Shown: positions 18,505 to 62,529, counted from the stretch's first letter. The stretch: 64,000 nucleotides of DNA from Alistipes sp. (GCA_045124955.1 JBGVMU010000003.1:85247-149246), one strand, 5' to 3'. The notes: a model not told the origin generated them from the letters alone. Numbers and translations: made by a program.

Positions 18505-19257
18505 ATGATTAAGGGAGAACATATATACAAATCTTTCGATGGTCGCACCATCTTGGAGGATATCTCGGTTGAGTTCGAGGCGGGAAAGACAAACCTTATC
18601 ATTGGTCGTAGTGGCTCGGGTAAGACCGTGCTTCTGAAAACCCTTGTCGGACTCCACGAGCCCGATAGTGGCAGCATCTACTACGACGAGAAGAACTATA
18701 CAGCCCTCTCATTTGCCGAGCGAAAACTCGTGCGCCGTGAGGTGGGTATGATTTTCCAGGGCGGAGCACTTCTCGACTCATCGACCGTATATGAGAATGT
18801 GCGTTTGCCTCTCGATATGTTCACCGACAAATCCTCTGCCGAGAAGGATAAGCGAGTGAAGGAGTGTCTTGCTCGTGTGGAGCTCTCCCACGCAGGTCAC
18901 CTCTATCCATCCGAGCTCTCCGGTGGTATGATTAAGCGTGCCGCTATTGCCCGTGCAATCGTTCTCAATCCAAAATACCTCTTCTGCGACGAGCCTAACT
19001 CCGGTCTCGACCCGCAGACCTCAATCGTGATTGATAACCTCATCCACGACATCACAGTGGAGTATAATATCACCACAATCATCAACACCCACGATATGAA
19101 CTCCGTTATGGAGATTGGCGAGAAAATCGTCTATATCCATCAGGGTAAAAAGTGGTGGGAAGGCACCAAAGACGATATTCTCCACGCCGACAACAAAGAA
19201 CTTAATGACTTTGTGTTTGCTTCTGCAATGGCAAAACGAGCAAAACAAGTACTCTAA
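18505..19257 (+). CDS. mlaF: MlaF/Mkl-type ABC transporter ATP-binding protein
   Basis: Walker A GRSGSGKT, LSGGM, CDEPNSGLDP; adjacent to mlaE. Confidence 0.9.
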   Translation: MIKGEHIYKSFDGRTILEDISVEFEAGKTNLIIGRSGSGKTVLLKTLVGLHEPDSGSIYYDEKNYTALSFAERKLVRREVGMIFQGGALLDSSTVYENVRLPLDMFTDKSSAEKDKRVKECLARVELSHAGHLYPSELSGGMIKRAAIARAIVLNPKYLFCDEPNSGLDPQTSIVIDNLIHDITVEYNITTIINTHDMNSVMEIGEKIVYIHQGKKWWEGTKDDILHADNKELNDFVFASAMAKRAKQVL

Positions 19258-19360
19258 TAGGCTCTTTTTGCACAAACCTTCGGACAGCGAGTTCCTCACA
19301 TACGCCAAAGTATGCTGCGGACTCGCTGCCTTGTTTTGCGCAAAAATAGCTCTATTATAG
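19253..19360. repeat. ~120-bp palindromic element, copy A
   Basis: Core CTCACATAC-GCCAAA-GTATGCTGCG within an extended stem with imperfect terminal inverted repeats; overlaps the mlaF stop. Confidence 0.8.
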
Positions 19361-19428
19361 CACTTGTTTACATCTTGGGAGCTGCCTAAAAGCGATTTAA
19401 TCTTGCCGGTCGCCCGAAAACAATTTTC

Positions 19429-20856
19429 CTACTCTCGGATAGTCTGTGCATCGAAGGCGAAGGCGATGAAGATCATTATCGAGAAGGCGAGCAGTGACGA
19501 GCCTCCGTAGGATATCAGAGGAAGTGGAATTCCCATAACAGGCACAATGCCCATAGTCATACCTATATTTATAAGTGTATGGAACAGGAGTATCGAGGCG
19601 ACGATATAGCAATAGACTCGACCGAAGGTCTCTCGTTGTCGGTCGCCCATACGCATAAGGCGGAAGATGAAGAGCATAATCAGCGTAAGCACCGTGATCG
19701 CCCCCACAAAGCCGAACTCCTCGCCTATGGTGCAGAAGATAAAGTCGGTATGTTTCTCGGGCACCAAGCCGTAGCGGATATGTGAGCCTTGCAGATAGCC
19801 CTTACCGAAGAATCCGCCCGAGCCGATAGCAATCTTCGACTGGCGCACATTGTAGTTGAGCGATGCGTCGTCTGTTATGCCGAGGAAGGTCTTAATTCGG
19901 TTTTGCTGGTGCGGTTTCATCACATTGAACATCGCATTCGAGGTTGGTGTAATCATCACCGACACCACAAAGAGCAACACCATTATATATATATTGCGCA
20001 GGCGTGAGCGGTAGGCATATACACAGACACCCACCATCGACAATAGCGTGGTCGAGAGCAATACCGTATAGTAATCGACCGAGATTGTAGGCACTGCACT
20101 CAATAACAAAAAGAGCAGTGTGCTACCACCAAAGAGCGATGCGAGATAGATGATGCTGTTGCGCCAATTGCGGTTGGCGAAGCACTCCGATAGTGTAAAG
20201 ACCAATATCAACGCCACGAGCAACACCGTAGGCGAATAGAGGAACGACAACAAGAAGAGTGCTGCAATAAATATAATAGGTATGCAGAGCCACTTGTTCA
20301 GCCCCTCACGATAGAGCATAAAGACAAAGGAGCAGAGCACCAAGCCCGAGCCTGTATCGTTCTGCAAATAGGTTATCGCAAGCGGCACAAGCAGTAGCAG
20401 TGCCACATTTACAAGGCTGCGGAACGAGGATATCGAGAAGCTGAACTCACTCATCAGGCGTGCCGTTGCCAGAGCGATGGCAATCTTGGCAAACTCCATT
20501 GTTTGAAGGCGTATCGGGCCAAACTCAAACCACGCCTTTGCGCCATTTACGGTGCGACCAAAGAGGAGTGTCGCCACCAAAGCCAATATGGCAGCCGCAT
20601 AGAGGAAATAGGCAATCTTATGCCACAGACTGCGGTCGAGAAGCATAATGACTACGCCCATAACGAGCGATATGCCGAGCCAGACTATCTGCTTGATGTA
20701 GTTGTGCGAGAAGGCAAAGAAGTTTTCGCTACCCTCGACCCACGATGCCGAGAATACCGCCACGACACCCACCATAACGAGCAATAGGTAGAGGAGCAGT
20801 GCCACACTATCGACACTGCCGAACAACGACTCTCTCTTTCTCTGTCCGTACTGCAT
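19429..20856 (-). CDS. rodA: Rod shape-determining protein RodA (SEDS family)
   Basis: GAKAWF, QTMEFAK, QSKIAIGSGG, PEKHTDFIF, GIPLPLISYGGSS. Confidence 0.97.
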   Translation of the reverse strand: MQYGQRKRESLFGSVDSVALLLYLLLVMVGVVAVFSASWVEGSENFFAFSHNYIKQIVWLGISLVMGVVIMLLDRSLWHKIAYFLYAAAILALVATLLFGRTVNGAKAWFEFGPIRLQTMEFAKIAIALATARLMSEFSFSISSFRSLVNVALLLLVPLAITYLQNDTGSGLVLCSFVFMLYREGLNKWLCIPIIFIAALFLLSFLYSPTVLLVALILVFTLSECFANRNWRNSIIYLASLFGGSTLLFLLLSAVPTISVDYYTVLLSTTLLSMVGVCVYAYRSRLRNIYIMVLLFVVSVMITPTSNAMFNVMKPHQQNRIKTFLGITDDASLNYNVRQSKIAIGSGGFFGKGYLQGSHIRYGLVPEKHTDFIFCTIGEEFGFVGAITVLTLIMLFIFRLMRMGDRQRETFGRVYCYIVASILLFHTLINIGMTMGIVPVMGIPLPLISYGGSSLLAFSIMIFIAFAFDAQTIRE

Positions 20857-22673
20857 TACTTCTTTCTATACATCGGATAGGCAATCTTGCGCTTCTTGAC
20901 ATACTCGACCAAGTGTGGTCGGCAGATTGTATCCGTCAAATATTTCTCCTCTATAAGCGATGCGATAGGTACCGCCATCTCGGCACCGAAACCTCCGTGC
21001 TCGACATATACGGCGATAGCAATCTTCGGGTTGTTGCGTGGCGCAAACGAGATAAAGGTCGAGTGGTCCTCGCCCTTCGAGTTCTGCGCCGTACCCGTCT
21101 TACCACATACATTCAACCCTTTGAGGTATGCACCCTGGCAAGTACCATCCTTATTCACACCTCGCCACATACCCTCGACGATATGGTCGAAGTGCTTGGC
21201 ATCGACCTTCGTATATTGTTTCTGGTAGAATCGTGTATCGAGCGAGTCTTGACCCTCAATCTCACGCACGATATGCGGAATGTAGTAGTAGCCACGATTT
21301 GCCACTATCGCTGCCAAGTTTGCCATCTGCAAAGGCGTGCAGCCCAACTCTCCCTGACCAATCGAGAGCGAAAGCAGTGTCAGTGCATTCCACGACTTGC
21401 GATAGCGTTTGTCGTAGAACTCTCGTGTAGGGACATAGCCCGCACCCTCGCCCAAGAAGTCGGAGTCGAGTTTGCGACCAAAGCCAAACGAGAGGACATA
21501 ATCACGCCACGCCTCGAAGCCATCTTTGGCAATCTCGTACTCTCGCTTGTTTTCGAGGATATTTCTGAAAACATAGCAGAAGTAGGCGTTGCACGATGTA
21601 GCAATCGCATAACTCAACGCCAAAGGCGAGCGGTGTTCGTGGCAACCGATATGCTCGCCACCAAGGTGGTAACCCATATTGCACGAATATTGGTAGTGTG
21701 GGCGCAAAACACCCTCCTGCATACCTATCAAGCCCGTAACGAGTTTGAAGGTCGAGCCTGGCGGATAGCGAGATTTTACGGCACGATTCCACAACGGCAT
21801 TCGGGGGTTGTTTATCTCCTTGGCGTAGTTGTTTCCACGCTCCTTTCCAATCACAAGTTCGTCGGGGTTGAAGGTTGGCGAGGATACCATTGTCAAAATC
21901 TCGCCCGTCGATGGCTCGATAGCAACCACTGCACCCACCTTATCCTGCATCAACTCCTCGGCCAACTGTTGCAACTCGGCATCGATGGTGCAGACTATCG
22001 ACTTGCCAGCCACAGGCTCCTTCAAGACGGTATTTCGCTCGGCTTGTGGAGCATATATATCCTGCAAAACGACACCCTTCTCGCCACGCAATACCTCCTC
22101 GTAGGCGAGCTCCAAACCCTCCATACCGATGTAGTCGCCCACCGAGTAAGAGTCATCCTTCTCGATTTTCGCCTTTGTAACCTCGTTGATACTACCCAAG
22201 AGATTACCGCCAATCTTGCGAGGGTATTGGCGCACGGTGCGCTGCGAGGTGTAGAAGCCGCCAATATTCATCTCGTCGAGCAACAGTTTCTGCTCCACGG
22301 TGATAGGGTAACGAGTCAGACGATTCTCCCTTCGATATGGCGACTGCGAAATCTTCTTTACAAGAGCCTCCTTCGACATACCTACAAGGTGGCTGACACG
22401 CAGAGTATCGAAGCCCGACTTAGGCATATCCTTGCGCACAATGCTGACATCGTAGCAGAGTCTATTCTGCGCCAACAACTCGCCATTGCGGTCGTAAATC
22501 TCGCCACGAGGCGGATAGAGCACCACATTTCGGAGATAGTTGCGGTCGGACAACTCGTCGTAGCGGTCGTCGACGAGCTGGATGTAACCCACACGCAATC
22601 CGAGGATTGCAAATATTACAATTACGATAATTCTTGCCACAAGAGCTCGTGGCGACAATCCTCCCTCTCTCAT
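20856..22673 (-). CDS. mrdA: Penicillin-binding protein 2
   Basis: PPRGEIYDRNG, YPPGSTFK (SxxK), SCN (SxN), KTG motif; located in the mre operon. Confidence 0.96.
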   Translation of the reverse strand: MREGGLSPRALVARIIVIVIFAILGLRVGYIQLVDDRYDELSDRNYLRNVVLYPPRGEIYDRNGELLAQNRLCYDVSIVRKDMPKSGFDTLRVSHLVGMSKEALVKKISQSPYRRENRLTRYPITVEQKLLLDEMNIGGFYTSQRTVRQYPRKIGGNLLGSINEVTKAKIEKDDSYSVGDYIGMEGLELAYEEVLRGEKGVVLQDIYAPQAERNTVLKEPVAGKSIVCTIDAELQQLAEELMQDKVGAVVAIEPSTGEILTMVSSPTFNPDELVIGKERGNNYAKEINNPRMPLWNRAVKSRYPPGSTFKLVTGLIGMQEGVLRPHYQYSCNMGYHLGGEHIGCHEHRSPLALSYAIATSCNAYFCYVFRNILENKREYEIAKDGFEAWRDYVLSFGFGRKLDSDFLGEGAGYVPTREFYDKRYRKSWNALTLLSLSIGQGELGCTPLQMANLAAIVANRGYYYIPHIVREIEGQDSLDTRFYQKQYTKVDAKHFDHIVEGMWRGVNKDGTCQGAYLKGLNVCGKTGTAQNSKGEDHSTFISFAPRNNPKIAIAVYVEHGGFGAEMAVPIASLIEEKYLTDTICRPHLVEYVKKRKIAYPMYRKK

Positions 22674-22676
22674 AAC

Positions 22677-23186
22677 CTATGCCGACAAGCGTTTCATAAA
22701 GAGCGAAAGGATGATGTTGTCGAGTACCAACGAACAGAGCGTACTGCACACGATGCGCAATACGAGGGTACCGAAATTGTCGAATGATAACCACTCCACA
22801 AAGTAGAATAGCAGAGAATGAAGTGCTACCATCATTATGAAGTAGCGATGAAAGCGCACTCCGAGTCGCTTAACCGACGGCACACCCTCCTCCTTTGATA
22901 TGGAGGATAGACCACCCAGCGCAAAGAGCAGTGGGCGACGGAAGAAGGCTATCGGCAGAGTGACCATTGTGTTCAGACCTGCCGTACCCATTGTGATATC
23001 CATCAACACACCGAGCAACAGACCCACACCGAGCATCTTCCACTGCGACGACTCGATGGGCATAAGCAATATCAGCACGATATAGACCATAGGGGCTACG
23101 AGCGGCGACATCGAGAGGTTGTTCAGCACGAACACCTGCACGAAAAGCACCACCAAAGTAAGCATTATGTATACTCTTGCCCTCAT
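22677..23186 (-). CDS. mreD: Rod shape-determining protein MreD
   Basis: Hydrophobic 169-aa protein between mreC and mrdA. Confidence 0.85.
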   Translation of the reverse strand: MRARVYIMLTLVVLFVQVFVLNNLSMSPLVAPMVYIVLILLMPIESSQWKMLGVGLLLGVLMDITMGTAGLNTMVTLPIAFFRRPLLFALGGLSSISKEEGVPSVKRLGVRFHRYFIMMVALHSLLFYFVEWLSFDNFGTLVLRIVCSTLCSLVLDNIILSLFMKRLSA

Positions 23187-23194
23187 AGTTTTTT

Positions 23195-23323
23195 AATTGA
23201 CAATTGACAATTGATAATTGACAATTATAGGTATTTTTATTTTTAACTACTCACTACTCACTACTCACTGCTCACTGCTCACTACTCACTGCTCACTGCT
23301 CACTGCTCACTGCTCACTACTCA
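23195..23323. repeat. Two heptamer arrays between mreC and mreD: (AATTGAC)x5 and (CTRCTCA)x11
   Basis: Arrays at 23195-23229 and 23247-23323; the second runs in phase into the mreC stop codon. Confidence 0.95.
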
Positions 23324-24148
23324 CTAATGGTAGGTTTTTTCTTCGAGTGCTTGTGCCTCGCCGGCACCTGTGTTGCGCACCAATACCACATTGTAGAGTC
23401 GGTTCATATCTGCCGCAAGGCGCACCTTGCAGTTGTAGGATGTACCATTCTCGGCAAGCTCTATCTCTTCGATATTTCCGATTATCGCCTCCTTAGGGAA
23501 GTAGTGCGAGAAACCTGCGGCACGCACCAAGTTGTCTTTCTGCACCTTGGCATACTTGGACAACTCCACAAAGTCTATAATCTGCGTATCGCCACCACGC
23601 CACGCCACCGAGCCGTGACTACCATCCTCTGCCAACACTCCGCCAAGACGGAAATCGACATTCAAGAGCGTCTTTGCCACGGCGAAGTTCTCCGAGCAAT
23701 CGACCACCACACCTACGGCATAACCCTCGGGGGTCATCACTGCCATATCGGCAAATACTCCGTCTTGAAAGCCCTTGTCGAGGGTGATAAAGTTGCGACG
23801 ACGATTTGTGGTTGAGGATATCACACGGGCCGAGAGGTACTCATACCTCTGCAATACCCCCTCGACTGCCAATTTCTCCTCGGGTTGCATAGCTTCGAGG
23901 GTGCGAATGCGGTTTTCGAGCGTAGCGATATGCTCGGTCAAACGGGTATTCTCCTTGCGGAGCGCAAAGTAGTTCGATATTCCAGCAAAGGTTGATTGCA
24001 CCGCACCCACCACCGTATTTGACCACACAAGCAGGCGAGCCTGTGTATATGGCGTCGAATAGGCGTAACAGCGAATGGCGATAATCTCCAAAATGATAAA
24101 GACTATCGCCACTGCGGTTTTGCGTATGAAGTATATCAACTTCTGCAT
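23324..24148 (-). CDS. mreC: Rod shape-determining protein MreC
   Basis: Coiled coil LRKENTRL, ARVISST...FITLDKG, FPKEAIIG. Confidence 0.95.
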   Translation of the reverse strand: MQKLIYFIRKTAVAIVFIILEIIAIRCYAYSTPYTQARLLVWSNTVVGAVQSTFAGISNYFALRKENTRLTEHIATLENRIRTLEAMQPEEKLAVEGVLQRYEYLSARVISSTTNRRRNFITLDKGFQDGVFADMAVMTPEGYAVGVVVDCSENFAVAKTLLNVDFRLGGVLAEDGSHGSVAWRGGDTQIIDFVELSKYAKVQKDNLVRAAGFSHYFPKEAIIGNIEEIELAENGTSYNCKVRLAADMNRLYNVVLVRNTGAGEAQALEEKTYH

Positions 24149-24155
24149 CTTGAAA

Positions 24156-24279
24156 AAAATTATTCTGATTGGTAAATTTTGCGCTGCTCTTCGGTAAGCG
24201 AAATCCTCACATACCTCTTAGTATGCTGCGGTTTCGCTTCCTCGTTTATCGCAAAATTTCCTCAATCATCTCTAATTTT
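24156..24279. repeat. ~123-bp palindromic element, copy B (between mreB and mreC)
   Basis: AAAATTATTCTGATT...CTCACATAC-CTCTTA-GTATGCTGCG...AATCATCTCTAATTTT. Confidence 0.85.
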
Positions 24280-24297
24280 GTTTTTTGCTATCAGATT

Positions 24298-25317
24298 TTA
24301 TCGCATCAAGAACGAGAAGCGGTTAATATTTTTCAATGCGATGTTCGTACCTCGAACTACTGCACGCAACGGATCCTCTGCAATGTGGAACGGAATACCT
24401 GTCTTCTTCGAAAGACGGCGGTCGAGGCCCTTAATCAAAGCACCACCACCTGCGAGGTAGATACCATTGCGAACAACATCGGTATAGAGCTCGGCAGGCA
24501 TCTCCTGCAACACCTTCATAAGTGCTGCGTCGAGCTTTACGAGCGACTTGTCGAGTGCGTAGGCAATCTCGTTGTACGACAAGGTGATTGTCTGCGGAAG
24601 ACCTGTGAGCATACTTGGACCTGTAACTACGAAGTCCTCGGGAGCATCCTCCAACTCAGGTACTGCTGCACCAATCTTACACTTAATCTCCTCGGCAGTA
24701 CGCTCACCGATGCGCACGCTGTGCTGGTGGCGAACATACTCCATAATATCGGTTGTAAACTCATCACCCGCAACCTCGATGGACTCCGAACATACGATAC
24801 CGCCCAACGAGATACAAGCGATCTCAGAGGTACCACCACCTATGTCGATAATCATATTACCCTCTGGTGCCTCTACATCGATACCTGCACCGAGAGCAGC
24901 AGCCATAGGCTCGAAGATCATCGCAACCTCACGGCCACCGGCGTGCTCTGCCGAGTCACGCACGGCACGAATAGCAACATCGGTTGAACCCGAAGGGATG
25001 CAGATAACCATTTTGAGCGAAGGCGAGAAGAGCGAGCTTCTGGTCTTAATCTTGCGAATCATACCACGCAACATCAACTCCGTAGCGTTGAAGTCGGCGA
25101 TAACACCATCCTTCAACGGGCGGATGGTGCGAAGGTTAGGGTTGGTACGACCGATGAAGGCGTGAGCCTTGCGACCGAGCTCTACCAACTGGCCGGTCTG
25201 CACATTTACCGCAACGACAGATGGCTCATCAACTACCACCTCGTCGTTATAAACAATCAGAGTATTGGCTGTACCAAGGTCGATAGCCAACTCCTGTGTC
25301 AATGAAAAAAGTCCCAT
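24298..25317 (-). CDS. mreB: Rod shape-determining protein MreB
   Basis: AIDLGTANT, RPLKDGVIADF, IDIGGGT, LAGGGAL. Confidence 0.98.
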   Translation of the reverse strand: MGLFSLTQELAIDLGTANTLIVYNDEVVVDEPSVVAVNVQTGQLVELGRKAHAFIGRTNPNLRTIRPLKDGVIADFNATELMLRGMIRKIKTRSSLFSPSLKMVICIPSGSTDVAIRAVRDSAEHAGGREVAMIFEPMAAALGAGIDVEAPEGNMIIDIGGGTSEIACISLGGIVCSESIEVAGDEFTTDIMEYVRHQHSVRIGERTAEEIKCKIGAAVPELEDAPEDFVVTGPSMLTGLPQTITLSYNEIAYALDKSLVKLDAALMKVLQEMPAELYTDVVRNGIYLAGGGALIKGLDRRLSKKTGIPFHIAEDPLRAVVRGTNIALKNINRFSFLMR

Positions 25318-25365
25318 AAGTGTATCTATTTTTATCTAAATTTTATTCCAAACTCCAACTTTTGA

Positions 25366-25426
25366 CAAAGATAGTGAAAAGTTATATAACTTTTCCTAAT
25401 TTTATACGAATTTTTTACTATCTTTG
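25366..25426. promoter_or_regulatory. Back-to-back promoters of mreB and pgi with a central 20-bp perfect palindrome
   Basis: TATCTTTG on the minus strand (25366-25373) and on the plus strand (25419-25426); GAAAAGTTATATAACTTTTC at 25376-25395. Confidence 0.7.
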
Positions 25427-25476
25427 ACAATCATTTTTGAGCGAAGAATTATTTCAAACTAAAAAACAATAAAATT

Positions 25477-26808
25477 ATGGCACTTTTGAAGTTGAATACC
25501 GCAAAGAGCGGTGTCGCATTTTCGGAGGAGTTGAAGGCCTCGGCTTTGGCAGCAAACGCATTGCTCCACTCGGGCAAGGGCGCAGGCAACGACTTTCTCG
25601 GTTGGGTAAATCTCCCATCGTCGATTGATAAGGCGCAGATCGACGCCATCAACGCTTGCGCAGCATCGTTGCGTGCAAAGGCTGATGTTGTAATCTGCAT
25701 CGGTATCGGTGGCTCGTACCTCGGCGCAAAGGCTGTGCTCGACGCTATGAGCAACCCATTCGAGTTGCTTCACGCAAAGCACGAGAACCCAATCGTATTG
25801 TTCGCTGGTCAGAACATCTCGGAGGACTACACCGCAGAGTTGTTGGCAGCAGTTAAGGATCACTCGATCGCTACAATCGTAATCTCGAAGTCGGGTACTA
25901 CTACCGAGCCCGCTATCGCCTTCCGTATCATCAAGGAGGAGATCGAGAAGCGTTATGGCAAGGAGGAGGCAAAGTCACGCATCGTTGCTATCACCGACCA
26001 GGCTCGTGGCGCATTGAAGACCCTCGCAACCCAGGAGGGCTACCAGACTTTCGTTATTCCTGACAATGTAGGTGGTCGCTTCTCGGTACTTACCCCTGTG
26101 GGCTTGCTCCCACTCGCAGTAGGTGGCGTGGATATCGCAAAGTTGGTTGCAGGTGCTCAGGTTATGGAGGCAGCAACTGCCGAGGGCGTAGCATTCGAGG
26201 ATAACCTCGCAGCGCAGTATGCAGCAACCCGCAATGTGTTGTATAACGCTGGCAAGAAGATTGAGATTCTCGGTTCGTATGAGCCAAAGTTGCAGAACAT
26301 CAACGAGTGGTGGAAGCAGCTCTATGGCGAGAGCGAGGGTAAAGAGGGTAAGGGTATCTTCCCTGCATCGGTAACCTTCACCGCAGACCTTCACTCTATG
26401 GGTCAGTATATCCAGGAGGGTGAGCGCACCTTGTTCGAGACTATTATCTCGGTTGAGAAGCCTGCACACGAGGTTAAGGTTGAGGCTGATGAGGCTAACC
26501 TCGACGGCTTGAACTTCTTGGCTGGCAAGCGTTTGCACGAGATTAACAAGATGGCGGAGTTGGGCGTTCAGTTGGCTCATATCGACGGTGGCGTGCCTAA
26601 TATTTTGATTCAGATTCCTGCTATCGAGGAGGAGGCAATCGGCGCATTGCTCTACTTCTTCGAGAAGGCTTGTGGTATCAGCGGCTATATGATTGAGGTT
26701 AATCCGTTCAACCAGCCAGGCGTTGAGGCGTACAAGAAGAATATGTTTGCATTGCTCGACAAACCAGGCTACGAGGAGGAGAGCAAGGCGATTAAGGCGA
26801 GACTCTAA
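25477..26808 (+). CDS. pgi: Glucose-6-phosphate isomerase
   Basis: [45 protein letters not shown]. Confidence 0.98.
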
Positions 26809-26811
26809 TTT

Positions 26812-26971
26812 TGGAGTGGAGAGTTGAAAATGGAGAGTTGAGAGTTTTTCTCGACTCTCTTTTTTTAGGGCTATTAGCCATTGGCCATTAGCCATTAGCT
26901 TTTTAGGGGTGATAGGGATAATAGGGGTAATAGGGTTTTTCTAAACTCACTAAATTCCCTAAATTCTCTAA
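26812..26971. repeat. Heptamer arrays (GGAGAGT; CCATTAG) plus a composite 9-mer element
   Basis: 26812-26845, 26871-26899 and 26894-26971; the last is the near reverse complement of 33741-33826. Confidence 0.85.
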
Positions 26972-27001
26972 TCTCCATAAATTCCCTCTCTTCCTGACTT
27001 C

Positions 27002-27124
27002 AAAATCGTAAATGGTTGAGGGAATTTTGTGCAAGGCTAGGCGTTGAGTGCGGAGCATACTTGGCGTATGTGAGCAACTCAACGACCGACGACTTGTGCA
27101 AAATTCACCAACCAGAACGATTTT
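27002..27124. repeat. ~123-bp palindromic element, copy C (opposite orientation)
   Basis: CGGAGCATAC-TTGGC-GTATGTGAG core; termini AAAATCGT...ACGATTTT; closely similar to copy E at 62407. Confidence 0.88.
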
Positions 27125-27129
27125 CCTAC

Positions 27130-27167
27130 AAAAAAAGATAGACACTCGATTGAGTGTCTATCTTTTT
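27130..27167 (-). terminator. Rho-independent terminator after rpmE2
   Basis: AAAAAGATAGACACTC-GATT-GAGTGTCTATCTTTTT hairpin with A/T tails on both sides. Confidence 0.85.
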
Positions 27168-27183
27168 CCATAGAAGAGCAAAA

Positions 27184-27444
27184 TTACTTCTTCTTATCGT
27201 AGCGCTTTGCGTAACGGCTCATAAACTTATCCACACGACCGGCGGTATCTACCAACTTCATCTTACCAGTGTAGAATGGGTGAGATGTGTTAGAGATTTC
27301 CATCTTATACACGGGATAGGTTTCGCCGTTCACCTCGATGGTCTCCTTTGTCGAAACGGCGGACCTGCACAAAAACACGTGGTCATTCGACATATCCTTG
27401 AATGCCACCAAACGATAATTCTCTGGATGAATTCCCTTTTTCAT
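27184..27444 (-). CDS. rpmE2: 50S ribosomal protein L31 type B
   Basis: MKKGIHPENY, EISNTSHPFYTGK, GRVDKF; no zinc-binding cysteine pairs. Confidence 0.97.
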   Translation of the reverse strand: MKKGIHPENYRLVAFKDMSNDHVFLCRSAVSTKETIEVNGETYPVYKMEISNTSHPFYTGKMKLVDTAGRVDKFMSRYAKRYDKKK

Positions 27445-27493
27445 CTTGAATGTGTTTTTTGTTAATTAAGTACTTAATTGCAATAATGCGGTG

Positions 27494-27541
27494 CAAAGGT
27501 AGAATAAAAAATTCAGAATGCAAAATGCAAAATGCAAAATT
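27494..27541 (-). promoter_or_regulatory. rpmE2 promoter with a (CAAAATG)x4 heptamer array across the -33 region
   Basis: TACCTTTG on the minus strand at 27494-27501; a TTTG from the array at 27521-27524 gives 19-nt spacing. Confidence 0.7.
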
Positions 27542-27584
27542 TTCTACTTTTCCACCTTTTCATCCGAAAATTGGGGGGATTTCT

Positions 27585-27770
27585 CATAGGAGATGCACCT
27601 GCGATGCTTGATAAGAGGCGGAGCAGAGCTCCTTTATGGGAGATACCGACAAGTCGGCTTGATAGGAATTGTGTCCTGGCTTATCTTGTCAAGTAGTCGC
27701 AAGACTACGCCTCCTATCAAGCAATTCTTTGAATTGCACCTCCTATCAAGGGCGCAGCACGACTCTTATA
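27585..27770. repeat. Array of CNYCTCCT-ATCAAG units each followed by a different mini-hairpin; two halves in inverted orientation
   Basis: Three units on each strand; related units at 63730-63804. Confidence 0.85.
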
Positions 27771-33610: not shown

Positions 33611-33713
33611 TTTTTACATACCCCCCTCCGCTACGCTCGTCCCCCTAACTTAGGGGGACAATACCTTATCTATTCCTCCCCTAACTTAGGGGAGGTGGCA
33701 AAGCCAGAGGGGG
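33611..33713. repeat. REP-like doublet, copy 1
   Basis: Hairpins GTCCCCCTAACTTAGGGGGAC (33639-33659) and CCTCCCCTAACTTAGGGGAGG (33675-33695); inverted copy at 40399-40505. Confidence 0.88.
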
Positions 33714-34637: not shown

Positions 34638-34727
34638 CTCTCGTCTCTCGTCTCTCGTCTCTCGTCTTTTTATTATCTTTGCAAAAGAAAAAGCTAATGG
34701 CTAATGGCCAATAGCTAAAAGCCAAAA
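34638..34727 (+). promoter_or_regulatory. Methyltransferase promoter flanked by heptamer arrays
   Basis: (CTCTCGT)x4 at 34638-34667, TATCTTTG at 34674-34681, (GCTAATG-like)x5 at 34693-34727. Confidence 0.75.
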
Positions 34728-35611: not shown

Positions 35612-35713
35612 GAGATTTCAAGTAATACAGCTACGAGCCTACGGCTCACGCAATGACGATATATTATTAAAAAAGCCAATGGCTAATGGCTAATGGCGAA
35701 AAGCTAATTTAAG

Positions 35714-37882: not shown

Positions 37883-38034
37883 CAATTGATAGTTGATAAT
37901 TGAGAATTATAGGTAAAAGCGATGCAAAACATCGCTTTTATTTTTTTATTTGTATATCAGATGTAAATTTTAATATAAAATACCACAAATTGTCAATTGT
38001 CAATTGTCAATTATCAATTAGATTTCTAACTTTG
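37877..38034. repeat. Inverted pair of AATTGAC/AATTGTC heptamer arrays enclosing the rnr terminator and ending at the mqnC promoter
   Basis: 37877-37911 (contains the rnr TGA), terminator AAAAGCGATG-CAAAA-CATCGCTTTT at 37915-37947, array at 37988-38020, TAACTTTG at 38027-38034. Confidence 0.88.
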
Positions 38035-39130: not shown

Positions 39131-39180
39131 AAAAACGAGCAGATGCTCGTTTTTTTTGCTATTAGCCATTAGCCATTAGC
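39129..39180. terminator. Bidirectional terminator between mqnC and rimM, followed by a (CCATTAG) array
   Basis: AAAAAAACGAGC-AGAT-GCTCGTTTTTTT; array at 39158-39180. Confidence 0.8.
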
Positions 39181-39182
39181 TT

Positions 39183-39671
39183 TTACTCTATTAGACCGTC
39201 TGGCAAGACAAATTTGATAGTCTGCTTTTCGAAGTCGATTGCGGCGATAAACTCCTCGACCGCAGGGATAAGGTGGCGTTTGCCTTTGAGCTCAATCTCG
39301 AAGAGTGGGTTGAACTCGTTATCGTAGTAGTCGACAATCTCGCCCTTCGAGCGGCCAATGCGCACCTCGAAGCCGATCAAATCATCGAAATAGAACTCGT
39401 CGCTATCCTCCTCCTCGACTTCGAGCATAAGTTCGTGGTCGAGAATCATCTCGGCACGCTTCTCGGTGTCGATGTCGGCAAATGCTACGACCGCACTGCG
39501 CTGACCACGACGAGCGAATGAATCACAAAAAAGAGGAACTACCAACTCCTCCACTTTCGTGAAGAAGGGTTGTTCCTCCCAATTGAAGTTGTCGGGCAGG
39601 GTGTCGTAGAGGTTGATTACTACCTCTCCCTTTACTCCGAAGAGCTTGGTTATGCGCCCTACCGTCAACAT
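39183..39671 (-). CDS. rimM: 16S rRNA processing protein RimM
   Basis: VGRITKLFGVKGEV, FYFDDLIG, LIPAVEEFI; follows rpsP. Confidence 0.93.
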   Translation of the reverse strand: MLTVGRITKLFGVKGEVVINLYDTLPDNFNWEEQPFFTKVEELVVPLFCDSFARRGQRSAVVAFADIDTEKRAEMILDHELMLEVEEEDSDEFYFDDLIGFEVRIGRSKGEIVDYYDNEFNPLFEIELKGKRHLIPAVEEFIAAIDFEKQTIKFVLPDGLIE

Positions 39672-46369: not shown

Positions 46370-46375
46370 AGCATA

Positions 46376-46498
46376 AAAATCGTTCTGATTGGCTCTTTTT
46401 GCACCTTACTTGCAGTGAAAATGCTCACATACGCCCAAGTATGCTCCGCTTCTCACTACTGCGTAACGCACAAAAATAGCCTAATCATCGACGATTTT
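46376..46498. repeat. ~123-bp palindromic element, copy D (between TolC and MATE)
   Basis: AAAATCGTTCTGATTGG...CTCACATAC-GCCCAA-GTATGCTCCG...ACGATTTT. Confidence 0.85.
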
Positions 46499-46518
46499 GG
46501 ATATTCTATAGATAAAAA

Positions 46519-47931
46519 CTATCGTTTTCCGTTTTCCGTCTTTAGCTTTCCGTTCTTCTTGCATTTGAAGATTGGGTTCTTCTCGGTAGCAGGCTCGATG
46601 CTTGTGTCGATACCGCCACCCAAAGCACGGTAGAGGTTGATAACACCCTGAATACCCTCAAAGCGGTCCGAAACCTGCTGCAATCGTGCCGAAAGCAACG
46701 ACTGCTGGGCGGTCAAAACCTCCAAGTAGGTAGCCTCCGAGTGGCTCATCAGCTGACGAGTACTATATACCGAACTCTCCAAAGTCTCGATCTGGCGAAT
46801 ACGCAAGTTGGTCTTGCTGCGAGCCGAACGGCACTGCGCCAATGCGGTATTCACCTCGCTACCAGCCTCCAATAACTTGTGTTCGAATTCGAGCAAAGCC
46901 TCCTTCTGCTGCGACTGTGCAATCTTGTAGTTTGCACGGTTTGCGCCAGCGTTGAAGATTGGTTGTACCAACTTACCCACGAACGAGAGTACCCAGGTTG
47001 CAGGGCTGCCCTCGAATGCGCCCTCGCCTGTGATGGTGAGCGAAGGGTAGAGCTTTGCGTGAGCGATGTTGGTGTTGTGGTATGCGATGCGGAGGTTATA
47101 CTCTGCCTGCTGAACATCGGGACGACGAGAGAGCAACTGCGCAGGTACGCCTACAAACAACTCCTGCTTGAAATCTACGCCATTCAACTCGCCACGAGGG
47201 AAGTCCTGTGGAGGAACACCCAACAAGAGTGCGAGAGAGTTTTGTGCCTTAACCAAGCTGTACTCCAAATCGTGCAACGATGCATCGATTGAGCAACTGT
47301 TAGCCTCGGTACGGGATACCGAAGCCTCGTTGGTCATACCCGCCTCCTTCATAGCCTTCATTGTGCGGACATTATCCTTCCACGAAGCCGAAGTTGCACG
47401 AGAGATGCGAAGCTGTGCATCGAGCATAAGGAGTGTATAGTAGTTGTTGGCGATAGCCGATACGAGTGCAGTCTGCACGCTACGACGATAGAGGCGGTTG
47501 TACTCCAATGTCGCCTCGGCCTTGCGCTTGGCGTTGATGTTGCGTGCCAAGATATCAATCTCCCAGCTCGCCTTTACAGGCAAGGTATAGGCGAATGATT
47601 GGTTCACGCCGGCACCAATCTGCGGCTCGAAGTTGAACGACGGAATAAACGCCAACTTTGCCGACTGCAATGCCAACTCCGCCTGCGAAACACGCTCTGC
47701 TGCCAACAGCATATCGATATTGTTCTTCAAGCCCTGCTCGATATAGCCCTGCAAGTACTTGTCGGTGAAGAACTCTCGCCACGAGATATCCGCAATGGTG
47801 GTGGTATCCGCCTTCTCGATGTTGCCATAGAGATTCTTGGTCGAGATCTCCTCGGGGCGGCTATATTTCTTGTAGATGGTGCAACTTGTGAAGAGAGTTG
47901 CAATACCCAATATTAAGAGAATCTTTTTCAT
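46519..47931 (-). CDS. TolC/OprM-family efflux outer-membrane lipoprotein
   Basis: Lipobox FTSC; SWEIDI, LLSRRPDV, YLEVLTAQ, LYRALGGG. The last ~12 codons are an ACGGAAA heptamer array. Confidence 0.95.
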   Translation of the reverse strand: MKKILLILGIATLFTSCTIYKKYSRPEEISTKNLYGNIEKADTTTIADISWREFFTDKYLQGYIEQGLKNNIDMLLAAERVSQAELALQSAKLAFIPSFNFEPQIGAGVNQSFAYTLPVKASWEIDILARNINAKRKAEATLEYNRLYRRSVQTALVSAIANNYYTLLMLDAQLRISRATSASWKDNVRTMKAMKEAGMTNEASVSRTEANSCSIDASLHDLEYSLVKAQNSLALLLGVPPQDFPRGELNGVDFKQELFVGVPAQLLSRRPDVQQAEYNLRIAYHNTNIAHAKLYPSLTITGEGAFEGSPATWVLSFVGKLVQPIFNAGANRANYKIAQSQQKEALLEFEHKLLEAGSEVNTALAQCRSARSKTNLRIRQIETLESSVYSTRQLMSHSEATYLEVLTAQQSLLSARLQQVSDRFEGIQGVINLYRALGGGIDTSIEPATEKNPIFKCKKNGKLKTENGKR

Positions 47932-54711: not shown

Positions 54712-54718
54712 AACGGCG

Positions 54719-54765
54719 CAAAGGTATGCAAATAAACGGAAAACTGAAAGCGGAAAACGGAAAAC
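54719..54765 (-). promoter_or_regulatory. pyrD-like promoter with (RCGGAAA)x4 array directly upstream
   Basis: TACCTTTG on the minus strand at 54719-54726, 7 nt from the ATG; array at 54736-54765. Confidence 0.7.
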
Positions 54766-54947: not shown

Positions 54948-54970
54948 TTAAAACGGAAAACTTTCAATTT

Positions 54971-55270
54971 AGTGAGTAGAGAGTAGAGAGTAGTGAGTAG
55001 TGAGAACGGAAAACGGAAAGCGGAAAGCGGAAAACCCTCAGCGCCCCCTTAATAGCCCTTAATAGCCTTTAACAGCCTTTAATTCGTTGCGCCGTGATAA
55101 GGGTAGGAGTCTGCACAACCCCAAAAACCCTCAGCGCCCCCTTAATAGCCCTTAATAGCCCTTAATAGCCTTTAACAGCCCTTAATTCGTTGCGCCGTGA
55201 TAAGGGTAGGAGTCCGCACAACCCCAAAAGCCTTTCAGCGCACCCTATTACCCCTATAATTCGTTGCGCC
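54971..55270 (+). repeat. Fused heptamer array (9 units) followed by three tandem scaffold copies with 10-mer/9-mer cargo
   Basis: 54971-55033; scaffolds at 55031-55122 (3 x TAAYAGCCYT), 55123-55225 (4 units) and 55226-55270 (one 9-mer). Confidence 0.9.
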
Positions 55271-58342: not shown

Positions 58343-58608
58343 CCTATTGGTCTTATTTGTCCCATTTGTCCCATAGGTCCCATTCTTCTTTCTGCGCCAT
58401 TACACCGTGCTGGGTATGATTTTTAATACCCGCCACTGTGTGTGGCAGTTCTCAACTCTCCACTCTCAACTCACTCTTGTTTTTGCACCATTACACCTTG
58501 CTGGGTATGATTTTTAATACCCGCCACTTTATGGGTATGATGTGCGATTCTTCACTCTCCACTCTCCACTCTCCACTCTCCACTCTCAACTCTCCACTCT
58601 CAACTCTT
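58343..58608. repeat. 9-mer array, 41-bp direct duplication and (CACTCTC) heptamer arrays
   Basis: 9-mers at 58343-58383; 58397-58437 matches 58488-58528 (1 mismatch); 8 heptamers at 58553-58608 overlap the downstream stop codon. Confidence 0.88.
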
Positions 58609-59200
58609 ATCTGTGGCGGTGTAGTTTCGGCAACTCGATATATTCCGTATAGACGATGTGGGTGTGAGGGTTTGACGAGGTTATCTCCTGTCGAATGGCT
58701 TTGGTGCCATAGCGGATAAACCACCAACGATGTGGCACACGATGTATCACTTGGTGCAGGGTGTCGATGCTCTCGACGAGGCATTCGACCTCGTTGTTGC
58801 GAATTGTTCCCTCGACCCTTGTCCAACTATCGCTCCACCGAAAGAGCGAGATGGTATCTCGCAAAATAATGGTGTCTGTGCGAGGTGCCACGAACTTCGT
58901 TTTGCTCTCGGTGGCGGTGGTTGCGACGCTCTCAACTCGTCGTAGTTTTATGTCGAGCGCACGAATGCGTCGTAAATCTTCGGCGTGCAGCTTGCGATAC
59001 TCGTTGAGCCGTAGTTGCAGGGCAACCACCGATGCGGCGGAGTTGTCAAGGCGTGTTTTGTAGAATTTTGTTTCGGAGGAGAGGGCCTTGCAGTTGTTGC
59101 GAAGTCGTGCAACCTCCTTGTTGTTGTGGTGCAGAATGGCCACACAAACCATAAGCAGTAGTGTCGCCACTACCGAGTAGTAGAATAGAATTTTTCTCAT
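58607..59200 (-). CDS. DUF6549-like single-TM coiled-coil protein
   Basis: Start MRKILF (59200); N-terminal TM, LRNN coiled coil, WSDSWTRVEG, DTLHQVIHRVPHRWWFIRYGTKAIRQEI. Confidence 0.65.
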   Translation of the reverse strand: MRKILFYYSVVATLLLMVCVAILHHNNKEVARLRNNCKALSSETKFYKTRLDNSAASVVALQLRLNEYRKLHAEDLRRIRALDIKLRRVESVATTATESKTKFVAPRTDTIILRDTISLFRWSDSWTRVEGTIRNNEVECLVESIDTLHQVIHRVPHRWWFIRYGTKAIRQEITSSNPHTHIVYTEYIELPKLHRHR

Positions 59201-61043: not shown

Positions 61044-61049
61044 ACTGTG

Positions 61050-62402
61050 CTATATAGAGTATTTTGTGATTTTGAGAATATTCTCGGTGTTGTTGCCTAC
61101 TCTGAAACGCTCGTCGGTGCGACGACCTACAATCCATACGATATCTTCGCCCGATACCAATACGAATTGTCGCTTGCGCTCCACGATTGGCACCTTCTGG
61201 TCGGTCAGGTAGTCGCCAACCTTCTTTCTGCCTGCCATTCCGAACGGAATAAACGAGTCGCCCTCACGCCAACGACGCAGACGAAGCGGATATTGCAACT
61301 TCGCCTCATCGAGCAGAGCCACATCGCTTGGCAGATGGTATTCATTTACATTGTCGATGTCGGTATGCTCGTAGTAGAGTACCGAATTTCCGCAGTAGGA
61401 GCGCATATCGCCACGCTCAACCACCACCTCGCAGTCGTCTTCATCCTCGATAGGAGCAATCATAATATTACCTCGGTCGAGGTATGCAACATAGTTGCGA
61501 GAGTAGAAGCGACGATCGGTAACTCCTCGCTTCAAAGCCTTGTTCAACTCCTCCACGACATCGCCCTTGAAGCCGTATGACGAGTTCAACAACTCGTAGA
61601 TGACAAAATCTCTCGGGTACATCGGGTCGATGGCTCCCACCTCGATGGTGTCTATTCCATTTTCGCTGTGCAGAGCAACCTCTCGGATGCGGTCGATTGC
61701 CACATCGATAAATCGCTGTGCGTCGTTCAGTCGGTAGAGGTTTCCACGCATCAGGGCGGTAAATCGAGGGTTTATCTCCTGTAACATTGGGAGCAAACCC
61801 AAGCGAATCTTGTTGCGCAGATACTTTGTCGAGCGATTTGACGAGTCCTCACGATAAGGTATGTTGTTTTGCAGGGCATACTCCAAGATATCCTTGCGTG
61901 TGGCGTAGAGCAGCGGGCGCACAACCCTGCCATATTGGCGATTTATGCCTGTAAGACCTCGCAAGCCCGTACCTCGCAGAAGGTTTATGAAAAATGTCTC
62001 GATAGAGTCGTTGGCGTGGTGAGCCACCGCAATTACGGCATACCCCTCCTCACGGCACAACTCGTTGAACCACTCGTAGCGCAGACGGCGAGCAGTCATC
62101 TCCATCGAGTCGCCCGTGCGTGCCATCTCGCCCTCGGTGTCGAAGCGCTTGTTGTGGCATACAATGCCCAACTTCTCGCACTCTTTCAATACCATCTCGG
62201 TGTCGGCATCGCTCTCCTCACCTCGCAAACCAAAGTTGCAGTGCGCAACACCGATATTGTAGCCCAAGCGGACAAATATCGAGAGCATAACCATCGAATC
62301 GACTCCACCCGATACGGTGAGCAGAATCTTATCCTCGTGCGAGAAGAGTTCGTGCCTCTCGACATATCTTTCGAATGCTTTTAGTAAAACCTCCGTCTGC
62401 AT
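61050..62402 (-). CDS. tilS: tRNA(Ile)-lysidine synthetase
   Basis: Start reassigned to MQTEVL (62402); VSGGVDSM, AHCNF, ARRLRY, AHHANDSIETF, RPLL, RNKIR, TilS_C region. Confidence 0.96.
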   Translation of the reverse strand: MQTEVLLKAFERYVERHELFSHEDKILLTVSGGVDSMVMLSIFVRLGYNIGVAHCNFGLRGEESDADTEMVLKECEKLGIVCHNKRFDTEGEMARTGDSMEMTARRLRYEWFNELCREEGYAVIAVAHHANDSIETFFINLLRGTGLRGLTGINRQYGRVVRPLLYATRKDILEYALQNNIPYREDSSNRSTKYLRNKIRLGLLPMLQEINPRFTALMRGNLYRLNDAQRFIDVAIDRIREVALHSENGIDTIEVGAIDPMYPRDFVIYELLNSSYGFKGDVVEELNKALKRGVTDRRFYSRNYVAYLDRGNIMIAPIEDEDDCEVVVERGDMRSYCGNSVLYYEHTDIDNVNEYHLPSDVALLDEAKLQYPLRLRRWREGDSFIPFGMAGRKKVGDYLTDQKVPIVERKRQFVLVSGEDIVWIVGRRTDERFRVGNNTENILKITKYSI

Positions 62403-62406
62403 AATA

Positions 62407-62529
62407 AAAATTATTCTGATTTGTAAATTTTGCACCTTGTGTCGGTCGTTGAGTTGCTCACATAGGCTTACTATGCTGCGCACTCATCGCCTAACAACGC
62501 ACAAAATTTCCTAAATCACCTCTAATTTT
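62407..62529. repeat. ~123-bp palindromic element, copy E (between murB and tilS)
   Basis: Core CTCACATAG-GCTTA-CTATGCTGCG, a compensatory C-G/G-C swap relative to the other copies. Confidence 0.88.

Follow-up and report, generated by a model that had tools for sequence, protein, structure and literature searches.

Reading five intergenic hairpins of Alistipes sp. as members of a ~125-bp palindromic repeat family

A 64,000-nucleotide stretch of Alistipes sp. DNA (the window) contains five copies of a long imperfect palindrome, three of which lie directly before start codons inside operons. This raises the question of whether the palindrome is a regulatory RNA element that serves those operons or a repeated DNA element that settles at gene boundaries. 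The five copies are best read as members of a large, old, and undescribed family of ~125-bp palindromic intergenic repeats, which supports the proposal of an earlier note on this DNA that the element is MITE- or REP-like. Dense extragenic palindrome families have received much study in Proteobacteria but hardly any in Bacteroidota, a phylum that dominates gut communities.

The five imperfect palindromes of ~125 nt were confirmed at the positions named by the earlier note. The pattern TTTTGCNC-N15-27-CTCACATA-N5-9-TATGCT has five matches in the window, which are the five copies (0.00 expected from 100 shuffles), and a profile built from 140 family members recovered the same five with E values of 1e-27 to 1e-32. 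Neither the pattern nor the profile detected further copies or fragments in the window. The refined limits used here take in the A-run and T-run of the outer stem. Copy A (19244-19368), which had been placed correctly but with slightly short limits (19253-19360), has its motif strand, of the type 5'-AAAATCG..CTCACATA..TATGCT..CGATTTT-3', on the plus strand and occupies the gap between the convergent ABC-ATPase (+) and FtsW/RodA-family (-) genes. Its outer stem is the variant AACAAGT/ACTTGTT, and the ABC-ATPase stop codon TAA (19255-19257) falls inside its left arm, at the TGA position of the consensus TTCTGAT. Copy C (27002-27125), the sole copy with the motif strand on the minus strand, also lies in a convergent gap, with pgi (+) on one side and a small ORF and serS (-) on the other. 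The A-run end of this copy adjoins a terminator-like hairpin with A and T tracts (~27133-27170), and its CGATTTT end is followed on the minus strand by a G-rich, C-poor tail (26978-27001; GAAGTCAGGAAGAGAGGG..). The other three copies, all with the motif strand on the plus strand, are each located between codirectional genes of the minus strand, including copy B (24155-24279) between mreB (24298-25317) and mreC (23324-24148), copy D (46375-46498) between an outer membrane efflux protein gene (46519-47931) and a MATE gene (44942-46369), and copy E (62406-62529) between murB (62597-63607) and tilS (ATG at 62402-62400). Their A-runs end 4, 5, and 3 nt from the ATG of mreC, MATE, and tilS, respectively, where the earlier coordinates had given 4 to 7 nt.

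The same element was found in at least 37 species assemblies of ruminant-gut Alistipes, Tidjanibacter, and Rikenellaceae from cattle, sheep, and yak. These assemblies contain at least 150 copies and, among the matches listed, at least 114 loci, and the window itself holds 5 copies per 64 kb. As far as sampled, the family is confined to ruminant-gut Rikenellaceae (Alistipes- and Tidjanibacter-like species), and viral contigs gave no match to it. It could serve as a marker of a whole clade of uncultured ruminant Alistipes-like species, in which short-read assemblies break at every copy. No match to Rfam release 15 was obtained at the gathering score over the whole window, and permissive thresholds gave only chance-level matches for copy B (E > 3); the element fits no described RNA family. 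A literature search found no description of it either.

Each of the five copies folds into one long hairpin (z = -4.7 to -8.5 against shuffles), which is continuous over the whole length, with no subpalindromes in the arms in any of the folds. The compensatory stem pairs that had been noticed in the window proved to be real and recurrent across the family. CATAC/GTATG and CATAG/CTATG are equally common, with CG in 69 and GC in 69 of 140 copies, and the other exchanges are CAAG/CTTG versus TTGT/ACAA and AAGCGAAAT/GTTTCGCTT versus CAGCGAGTT/GACTCGCTG. In the 140 copies, 89% of the cells are paired, compared with 77% in shuffles and 36 to 47% with slid partners, and 687 cells are changed on both sides, compared with 253 in shuffles. 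The covariation score is 0.321 versus 0.128, and none of 500 shuffles reached 0.321, which indicates that pairing is maintained by compensatory changes family-wide. The apical stem-loop is almost invariant, and the element has two conserved boxes, TTTTGCAC and GCACAAAA; the exact apical motif is kept in 151 of 157 near-full-length profile matches, and the few variants are compensatory (GCATAC/GTATGT to GTTTAC/GTAAAT). A second hairpin seemed evident by eye, with CCTCC of the right arm opposite GGAGG of the G-rich tail, but it was rejected because the tails of the copies themselves did not exceed permuted tails in pairing (z = -0.2).

The strong covariation over the full stem is consistent with a host-kept cis-acting RNA module at the 3' ends of coding regions and between cistrons, such as a REP-like mRNA stabilizer, a processing site (e.g., for RNase III), or a termination or attenuation signal, whose spread would be secondary. 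We consider this reading unlikely, although it is the most serious of the alternatives. In its favor, the strand transcribed in copies B, D, and E is the better-folding one (-44.8 versus -38.6 kcal/mol in copy B). In addition, the core of the element occurs in metatranscriptome contigs, some of which join it to the 3' end of mreB and the 5' end of mreC; however, these contigs carry no direction, ends, or processing sites. A joint inside copy B that skips 69 nt was dismissed as RNA processing since it also occurs in DNA, which indicates an origin in other family members or in assembly. In 143 of 152 copies, folding of the motif strand is 9 kcal/mol weaker than that of the opposite strand. This asymmetry rests on four conserved wobble positions only, and G-T and A-C cells elsewhere in the element are about equal in number (roughly 91 versus 98), so that the G-U pairs were judged to be weak evidence of strand-specific selection on RNA. 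A termination role also fits poorly. A terminator-consensus scan of 19000-27600 called the pgi terminator (26832-26860) but not copies A, B, and C, and instead of the short G+C-rich stem and subsequent U-run of an intrinsic terminator, the element has an A-U-rich stem base and a T-run that is paired with the A-run.

The position of the element relative to genes was analyzed in 148 copies. The AAAATCG end docks on gene boundaries and is mostly flush with the stop codon of the gene on the motif strand, with the stop codon ending 1 to 4 nt before ATCG in 45 of 60 copies, compared with 4.1 expected from uniform placement in the gap. Such base-precise docking on stop codons is a point for an RNA module. 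In a smaller number of cases, exemplified by copies B, D, and E, the same end precedes an opposite-strand start codon by 3 to 19 nt. Placement before a start codon, which these three copies had suggested, is therefore not the rule of the family, since this end is most often at a stop codon. The two ends are asymmetric (consensus AAAATCGTTCTGAT .. ATCAnnnnCGATTTT): the left end is an A-run after a stop-like triplet, flush with the gene boundary, and the right end is a T-run followed, in most family members, by a G-rich, C-poor tail of ~12 to 14 nt. In 98 of 113 copies, and in 21 of the 22 start-adjacent ones, the boundary is formed by T(AA|AG|GA) and an A-run. This A-run is also the pairing partner of the T-run at the right end. 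Variability within the element is highest in AAAATCG-NNNN-TGAT, in which GTAG or CGTC is sometimes present. Arrays are head-to-tail, and the later copies in tandem arrays lack the AAAATCG end. No target site duplication was detected at any offset with k = 3 to 5 in comparison with permuted pairs, the best flank k-mer agreement being 7 to 11 of 102 copies, and the base before the A-run bears no relation to the base after the T-run.

The shared orientation of copies B, D, and E had been taken as a link to transcription inside operons. Across the family, the orientations in codirectional gaps are 54:27 against the arrangement of these copies, which is thus the minority and not a rule. That both orientations relative to transcription occur, and that the majority places the weaker-folding strand in the mRNA, argues against an RNA module. 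In 27 of 29 multicopy loci, all copies are co-oriented whatever the gene direction. GC skew was used as a proxy for the direction of replication. The motif strand shows positive skew at 71 of 98 loci; after correction for the coding effect, it does so at 47 of 60 loci and in 35 of 41 orthology clusters (p = 5e-6), which were counted as independent loci. In the window, the plus strand is the G-rich strand after coding correction, and the motif is on it in four of the five copies. By this proxy, orientation follows the replication component of GC skew and not transcription, with the motif strand on the G-rich strand, which is a further point against an RNA module, and copies B, D, and E share an orientation because of this regional bias. 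The bias could reflect differential survival rather than the mechanism of insertion, since copies that present the weaker hairpin on the lagging-strand template may be deleted less often.

Most filled and empty genome loci were too diverged for comparison; the informative ones are L050 versus L015, the mreB-mreC series, and the alleles of copy D. At orthologous sites, the element is as conserved as its flanks or more so (99.3% versus 96% and 95.6% versus 73 to 80%). This is in keeping with an RNA module retained by the host, but gene conversion can explain the high identity as well, and inner modules are swapped whole between copies at orthologous sites. Copies also decay, by internal deletion and down to remnants, which does not favor retention by the host. 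Copies B and E are found in related strains too, whereas copy D is absent from them. In its place, a 209-bp block (46356-46564) that includes copy D, GTTTTCC heptamer repeats, and both gene ends corresponds to 39 bp, and the efflux gene stop codon TAA and the MATE GTG start are 10 nt apart. The operon is intact in these strains, which indicates that the element is dispensable for it.

Docking at gene ends and orientation with replication rather than transcription point to repeated DNA of the REP or MITE type and not to a dedicated regulatory RNA. With modest confidence, we favor repeated DNA of the REPIN or IS200/IS605 kind, which would act, spread, or be under selection in the form of a single-stranded hairpin at the replication fork. 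Both insertion and excision by Y1 transposases take place on the lagging-strand template, and subclass 2.6 of TnpA-REP is mostly from Bacteroidetes, where its genes lie between atypical secondary structures that are found repeatedly in the genome (PMC6006769). A Y1 HUH enzyme would mobilize the element, most obviously one of the Bacteroidota-specific subclass 2.6. On the lagging-strand template, the motif strand would be the active one, and the stop-like triplet with its A's would serve as the target or as the context of cleavage on the left. The exact position of more than half of the copies on a native stop codon is not accounted for by a short target motif alone, and the absence of the AAAATCG end from the later copies of tandem arrays also counts against this reading. 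A search of ~1 Mb around the copies (ORFs of ≥70 amino acids, HUH/Y-motif regular expressions, and phmmer with an approximate IS200 TnpA query) gave no match to a Y1/HUH gene. It is conceivable, though doubtful, that this is the first REPIN-like system to be worked out in Bacteroidota, with a phylum-specific Y1 HUH enzyme, the lagging-strand template, and a left end homing on stop codons, or else a host-fixed 3'-end or intercistronic hairpin whose modules are exchanged by gene conversion.

The family resembles REP/REPIN-RAYT systems (TnpA-REP, Y1 HUH) in its high copy number, in an extragenic palindrome of ~100 nt that folds as a single long hairpin, often just after stop codons, and in having old, vertically persistent populations with subfamilies, clusters, arrays, and occupied orthologous sites. 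Moreover, the Bacteroidetes-specific RAYT subclass 2.6 is described with atypical cognate structures (PMC6006769). However, a REP unit is a 20- to 40-nt palindrome with a GTAG or CGTC foot, two of which are inverted in a REPIN, whereas the arms here are not REP palindromes and have no such conserved foot. In addition, the apex rather than the ends is most conserved, the arrays are head-to-tail whereas BIMEs alternate, and no RAYT gene is linked to the element in the ~1 Mb around the copies. With IS200/IS605 elements and PATEs, the family shares the lack of target duplication, the asymmetric ends, perhaps with a conserved short motif adjoining the left end only, the dependence on imperfect hairpins, and an orientation tied to the replication fork (lagging-strand template), here by the GC skew proxy. 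In contrast to the two separate 20- to 25-nt subterminal hairpins on one strand in IS200/IS605, the element is a single whole-length palindrome; no TnpA was found in the same ~1 Mb, and that family is not known to dock on stop codons. Integron attC sites (e.g., the 123- to 126-nt Vibrio cholerae repeats) are also imperfect palindromes of ~125 nt directly after stop codons that act as folded single strands with strand-specific mismatches. However, their RYYYAAC/GTTRRRY core sites are absent here, and the copies are dispersed between housekeeping genes (mreB/mreC, murB/tilS, and pgi) with neither cassette arrays nor an integrase context.

A length of ~125 bp, palindromic ends, intergenic location, and high copy number are also typical of a classical MITE derived from a DDE-transposase insertion sequence, as with ERIC/IRU and Correia elements, and moved as double-stranded DNA through its terminal inverted repeats. 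This reading is already disfavored, and we regard it as very improbable. The inverted ends are present, but no target site duplication accompanies them at any length or offset, the left and right flanks are asymmetric, complementarity and covariation extend over the whole element and not the termini alone, and no long element with the same ends was found. Furthermore, a symmetric double-stranded mechanism predicts no orientation bias, whereas the copies are oriented with GC skew and with their neighbors. Core-less left ends, considered as a possible long autonomous element, were instead truncated copies, internally deleted "solo" stems, or chance matches. The ERIC/IRU elements of enterobacteria and the Correia elements (CREE/NEMIS) of Neisseria are likewise palindromic repeats of ~100 to 150 bp in transcribed intergenic regions, which fold as RNA hairpins and affect neighboring genes in an orientation-dependent manner. 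However, theirs are TA target duplications with no reported replication-linked orientation, and they have no sequence in common with the present family and belong to another host phylum. A stand-alone small RNA gene family, or an outward promoter for the downstream gene of copies B, D, and E, is most improbable of all, since there is no Rfam match and since a perfect Bacteroidota -7 box (TAnnTTTG, as TATTTTTG), although present in ~43% of copies, including A and D, on the strand reading toward the A-run end, is absent from copies B, C, and E and not enriched in start-adjacent copies (9 of 22) over stop-adjacent ones (29 of 68).

The reading as REPIN- or IS200/IS605-like DNA leaves room for effects on expression. 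Judging from their position, copies B, D, and E may be transcribed as stable hairpins 3 to 5 nt before the next start codon and may lower or buffer downstream expression. Tuning of processing or translation between cistrons, as proposed in the earlier note, may occur, and we treat any such RNA effect in operons as a by-product and not as the reason for the existence of the family. The family puts stable hairpins into essential operons (mreBC and murB-tilS), and its docking on stop codons with single-base precision is a trait seldom combined with an orientation linked to replication. Discovery of a cognate HUH enzyme would make it a tractable single-strand DNA system in Bacteroidota and a natural experiment for the effect of long hairpins at gene boundaries on expression. 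The mreB-mreC gap is occupied in relatives by different subfamilies, partial copies, remnants, an inverted copy, or an empty site. At the mreB stop codon, full copies are present in L121, L126, L127, and L131 and 25-nt left-arm remnants in L124 and L128, and the site is empty in L132. In the window, an oppositely oriented older copy may, with low confidence, have left a remnant of its left end in the sequence TAAAATC-TGATAGC on the mreB stop codon (24287-24300, minus strand).

The palindromic repeat occurs five times in the window, with the motif strand (AAAATCG through the apex and TATGCT to CGATTTT) on the plus strand in copies A (19244 to 19368), B (24155 to 24279), D (46375 to 46498), and E (62406 to 62529) and on the minus strand in copy C (27002 to 27125). 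By reading, all five copies share one order of boxes, comprising an A-run followed by TCG (or TTA), TTCTGATKRG, TTTTGCRC, a variable stem, and the near-invariant apex CTCACATA(C/G)-loop-(G/C)TATGCTSCG, after which the complements of the left boxes follow in reverse order, with CGATTTT last. A three-box pattern matched these five places only (0.00 expected from 100 shuffles), and a profile of 140 family members retrieved the same five copies (E = 1e-27 to 1e-32) and detected no additional copy or fragment in the window. The coordinates in the earlier note were correct, with copy A being slightly longer than described there, and the compensatory pairs that it listed are present in the five copies, each of which forms a single long hairpin whichever strand is folded (z = -4.7 to -8.5).

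Neighboring genes were assigned by Pfam. Copy A lies in a convergent gap between genes for an ABC ATPase (plus strand) and FtsW/RodA (minus strand), and the ATPase stop codon is inside its left arm, where TTCTGAT has its TGA. Copy C also lies in a convergent gap, between pgi (plus) and a small ORF and serS (minus). Its A-run end adjoins a hairpin at 27133 to 27170 with a perfect 11-bp stem and A7 and T5 flanks (AAAAAAAGATAGACACTCGATTGAGTGTCTATCTTTTT), which, judged by its sequence, is shaped like a bidirectional terminator and has no entry in the terminator consensus scan. Copies B, D, and E separate co-directional minus-strand genes (mreB and mreC, an outer-membrane efflux protein gene and a MATE gene, and murB and tilS, respectively), with 3 to 5 nt between the end of the A-run and the downstream ATG. 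The mRNA strand of these three copies is opposite to the CTCACATA motif strand and is the better folder.

An Rfam search, which had been proposed as a check, returned no family match for the element, and no published description of it was found in a literature search. The element represents a new family within a known general class, extragenic palindromic repeats, and the rules of its placement and orientation are unusual. Protein matches to MreC came only from cattle-gut metagenome assemblies. In a scan of one genome per species, a 21-base pattern matched at least 114 stretches, all but four of which belonged to 37 metagenome-assembled genomes of Alistipes, Tidjanibacter, or Rikenellaceae from the guts of yak, sheep, buffalo, cattle, and deer. 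The four outlying matches (Coxiellaceae, Cryptobacteroides, Acutalibacteraceae, and Rhodospirillales) aligned poorly to the family and were apparently due to chance. No copies were found in the viral contigs searched. The family consensus on the motif strand is aAAAATCGTTCTGATTGGTTCTTTTTGCACgAgtCtTCGGacgCCgAAATGCTCACATAgGCTTAGTATGCTGCGCTTTCGtCgCCTcGCaTCGCACAAAAATAcCcCAATCATcTaCGATTTTt. A diverged subfamily with an unchanged apex and different arms (..GGCTATTTCTGCGTTACGC.. and ..GCAAGCCTTGAAA..) was observed in related loci L122 (about 60 to 190) and L028 (4974 to 5097) and in the loose ends of DNA and RNA contigs at 24199 to 24235 and 46419 to 46451 of the window. It is abundant in cattle-gut DNA and in RNA contigs and was under-sampled because the search pattern demanded TTTTGCNC.

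Base pairing was counted on an alignment of 140 copies (A2), in which the search pattern predetermined the apex and part of one box, using a 41-pair hairpin specified by hand. Standard pairs occupied 89.1% of the cells, compared with 77.0% with shuffled partners and 36 to 47% with slid partners, and both sides had changed in 687 cells, compared with 253 with shuffled partners. The covariation score was 0.321, versus 0.128 for shuffled partners (0 of 500 as high) and 0.089 or less for slid partners. Individual column pairs alternated between standard pairs, including 64/71 (CG 69, GC 69), 54/80 (GC 75, CG 56), 53/82 (AU 81, UA 41, CG 11), and 16/116 (UA 72, GC 45). The exact apex was kept in 151 of 157 near-full-length profile matches in the collected loci, and its rare variants are compensatory (GCATAC/GTATGT to GTTTAC/GTAAAT). 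These pair counts and apex variants bear out, at the family scale, the compensatory substitutions claimed in the earlier note, the structural inference of which holds.

Some orthologous sites have identical outer arms around an inner module that comes entire, both arms together, from another subfamily (L044 versus L114 and L100; L050 versus L087), and element identity equals or exceeds flank identity. Such exchange of self-complementary modules carries much of the family-wide covariation, which therefore does not necessarily reflect compensatory change in place. In the mreB-mreC gap, most of 13 relatives, with MreCs 64 to 88% identical, have an element that sits directly on the mreB stop codon in the orientation opposite to that of copy B; these elements belong to different subfamilies, some with extra right-arm fragments. 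Two relatives retain only a 25-nt left-arm remnant, and one has an empty gap. In the window, a 14-nt stretch that resembles a remnant lies on the mreB stop codon (24287 to 24300). Other decay products include truncated copies and "solo" stems that have lost their interior (AAAATCG-TTC-CGATTTT with the tail). In head-to-tail tandem arrays, later copies lack AAAATCG and begin right behind the preceding tail (..GGNAGAG|TTCTGAT), and one array has three near-identical copies where the orthologous locus of another species has one (L087 versus L015). Copies B and E are present in the related strains sampled, whereas copy D is polymorphic: DNA contigs of related strains from three cattle-gut runs link 46355 to 46565 via 39 nt rather than 209 nt, leaving 10 nt between the efflux-gene stop codon and a GTG start of the MATE gene. 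In the copy-D allele (46356 to 46564), the efflux protein ends in ..FKCKKNGKLKTENGKR instead of ..FKCSKKKNK, with its C-terminal tail encoded by GGAAAAC heptamer repeats (46519 to 46560), and the MATE gene starts at a new ATG and is longer by two codons (MNKSATLSLG.. instead of GTG followed by SKTLSLG..).

The two ends of the element differ in their placement. Among 148 copies placed against crudely called genes (longest non-overlapping ORFs), the A-run end is near a gene boundary, and the opposite end is typically about 100 to 130 nt from the next gene. A stop codon ends 1 to 4 nt before ATCG in 45 of the 60 copies with a motif-strand gene on the left, compared with 4.1 expected under uniform placement in the gap, and the stop codon and the outer stem share A's wherever possible (TAA-AATCG, TGA-AAATCG, TAG-AAAATCG). 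The docked stop codon is native; the MreB C terminus is the same with and without the element, and the stop position is also identical in L050 and L015. In 98 of 113 copies, the A-run follows a stop-like triplet, even in places where no gene ends. Of the 22 copies that lie 3 to 19 nt from an opposite-strand start codon, 21 have this triplet. The T-run is followed by a G-rich, C-poor tail of about 12 to 14 nt, and the target-site duplications that the earlier note had proposed to look for were not found at the flanks. Stop-codon docking is the least explained feature of the family. Long-term compaction between two constrained features and selection favoring a hairpin where the reading frame ends are both options; a short target motif is too frequent in intergenic DNA to place more than 50% of the copies on a stop codon.

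Placement before start codons inside operons, as claimed from the window, does not extend to the family. Of the copies in co-directional gaps, 54 have the motif on the mRNA strand and 27 have it on the opposite strand, so the arrangement of copies B, D, and E is the minority; 28 further copies are in convergent and 8 in divergent gaps. Element orientation is instead regional. All copies have the same direction in 27 of 29 multi-copy loci, even when they are kilobases apart with intervening genes of either direction, and orientation also agrees between loci of one long contig. It follows GC skew, which is positive on the motif strand in 71 of 98 loci and, after removal of the coding-strand effect by averaging the skews of plus- and minus-strand genes, in 47 of 60 loci and 35 of 41 orthology clusters (p = 5e-6). 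Genes are only slightly more frequent on the motif strand (mean excess, 0.08). In the window, the corrected skew is +0.017 on the plus strand, although two-thirds of the coding bases are on the minus strand, and the motif is on the plus strand in four of five copies. We take the motif strand to be the leading-strand sequence and the lagging-strand template, according to the usual reading of skew.

The absence of duplication, the asymmetric ends, the conserved motif on one flank, the head-to-tail arrays, the imperfect hairpins with conserved mismatches, and the replication-linked orientation together fit single-strand DNA transactions at the replication fork. Such transactions are known for the Y1 HUH enzymes of IS200/IS605 and have been proposed for REP/RAYT; unlike both classical models, the element is palindromic over its whole length. 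A TnpA-REP subclass specific to Bacteroidetes has been described, the flanks of which carry atypical structures found repeatedly in the genome (PMC6006769). A Y1 HUH enzyme of this kind may move the element, and no HUH gene was found in about 1 Mb of sequence examined around copies. Alternatively, the orientation bias may arise from survival, with copies that place the more stable hairpin on the lagging-strand template being deleted faster. Of 152 copies, 143 fold better on the strand opposite the motif, with a mean difference of 9 kcal/mol. Four conserved wobbles account for this asymmetry: two form a tandem U-G/G-U in TTTTGTGC/GTGCAAAA, and the others lie in the middle stem and at the foot of the apical stem. 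In the remaining pairs, G-T and A-C cells are about equal (roughly 91 versus 98). The asymmetry is therefore treated as a real feature of the founder sequence of the family; as evidence that one strand in particular is the functional one, it is weak.

A role at the RNA level is plausible for some copies. Metatranscriptome contigs, which are directionless and may include DNA, contain the core, and some link it to the 5' end of mreC or the 3' end of mreB. The predicted hairpins of copies B, D, and E (-45 to -55 kcal/mol, with an A-U-rich outermost stem) end 3 to 5 nt before the start codon and could plausibly affect how the next cistron is translated or how stable it is. Several observations weigh against a dedicated regulatory RNA as the main explanation: orientation relative to transcription is mixed, copy D is polymorphic, the internal TAnnTTTG box is not enriched beside start codons, and the consensus scan did not call copies A, B, and C as terminators.

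Most intergenic regions of the window also contain short tandem arrays of 7-nt units (9-nt units in one), at 23195-23333, 26863-26990, 34638-34725, 35670-35707, 37877-38026, 39150-39194, 40303-40361, 43422-43480, 46514-46554, 54734-54765, 54970-55035, 58343-58613, 62560-62598, 63637-63682, and 63866-63896. Unit types such as AATTGAC, ACTCACT, GCCATTA, GGAAAAC, CTCTCCA, and GACGAGA are found repeatedly, in either orientation, throughout the window and in relatives, often right before start codons, and GTTTTCC repeats precede mreC in L122, L124, L130, and L132. A separate repeat at 55046 to 55251 and 63802 to 63851, with a 103-nt unit in tandem (86% identical) and a 50-nt core, CCTTAATTCGTTGCGCCGTGATAAGGGTAGGAGTCCGCACAACCCCAAAA, that occurs four times, had no Rfam match. 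Two near-perfect inverted-repeat pairs (48 nt at 96% and 34 nt at 91%) connect 33622 to 33699 with 40414 to 40494, 6.7 kb apart; each region contains a small perfect hairpin (GTCCCCCTAAnTTAGGGGGAC and CCTCCCCTAACTTAGGGGAGG), and they may represent another palindromic family or the ends of a 6.8-kb segment. A further conserved structured repeat (GATGGCATTTAATGGCATTCGGGCTTTCAGCCCTTAATGACATTTAATGGCAGCGCA..) occurs in L094 (221 to 400), upstream of an rpoD-like sigma factor gene, and in L010, L102, L036, and L067; in L010 and L094, it comes immediately after truncated copies of the 125-nt element.
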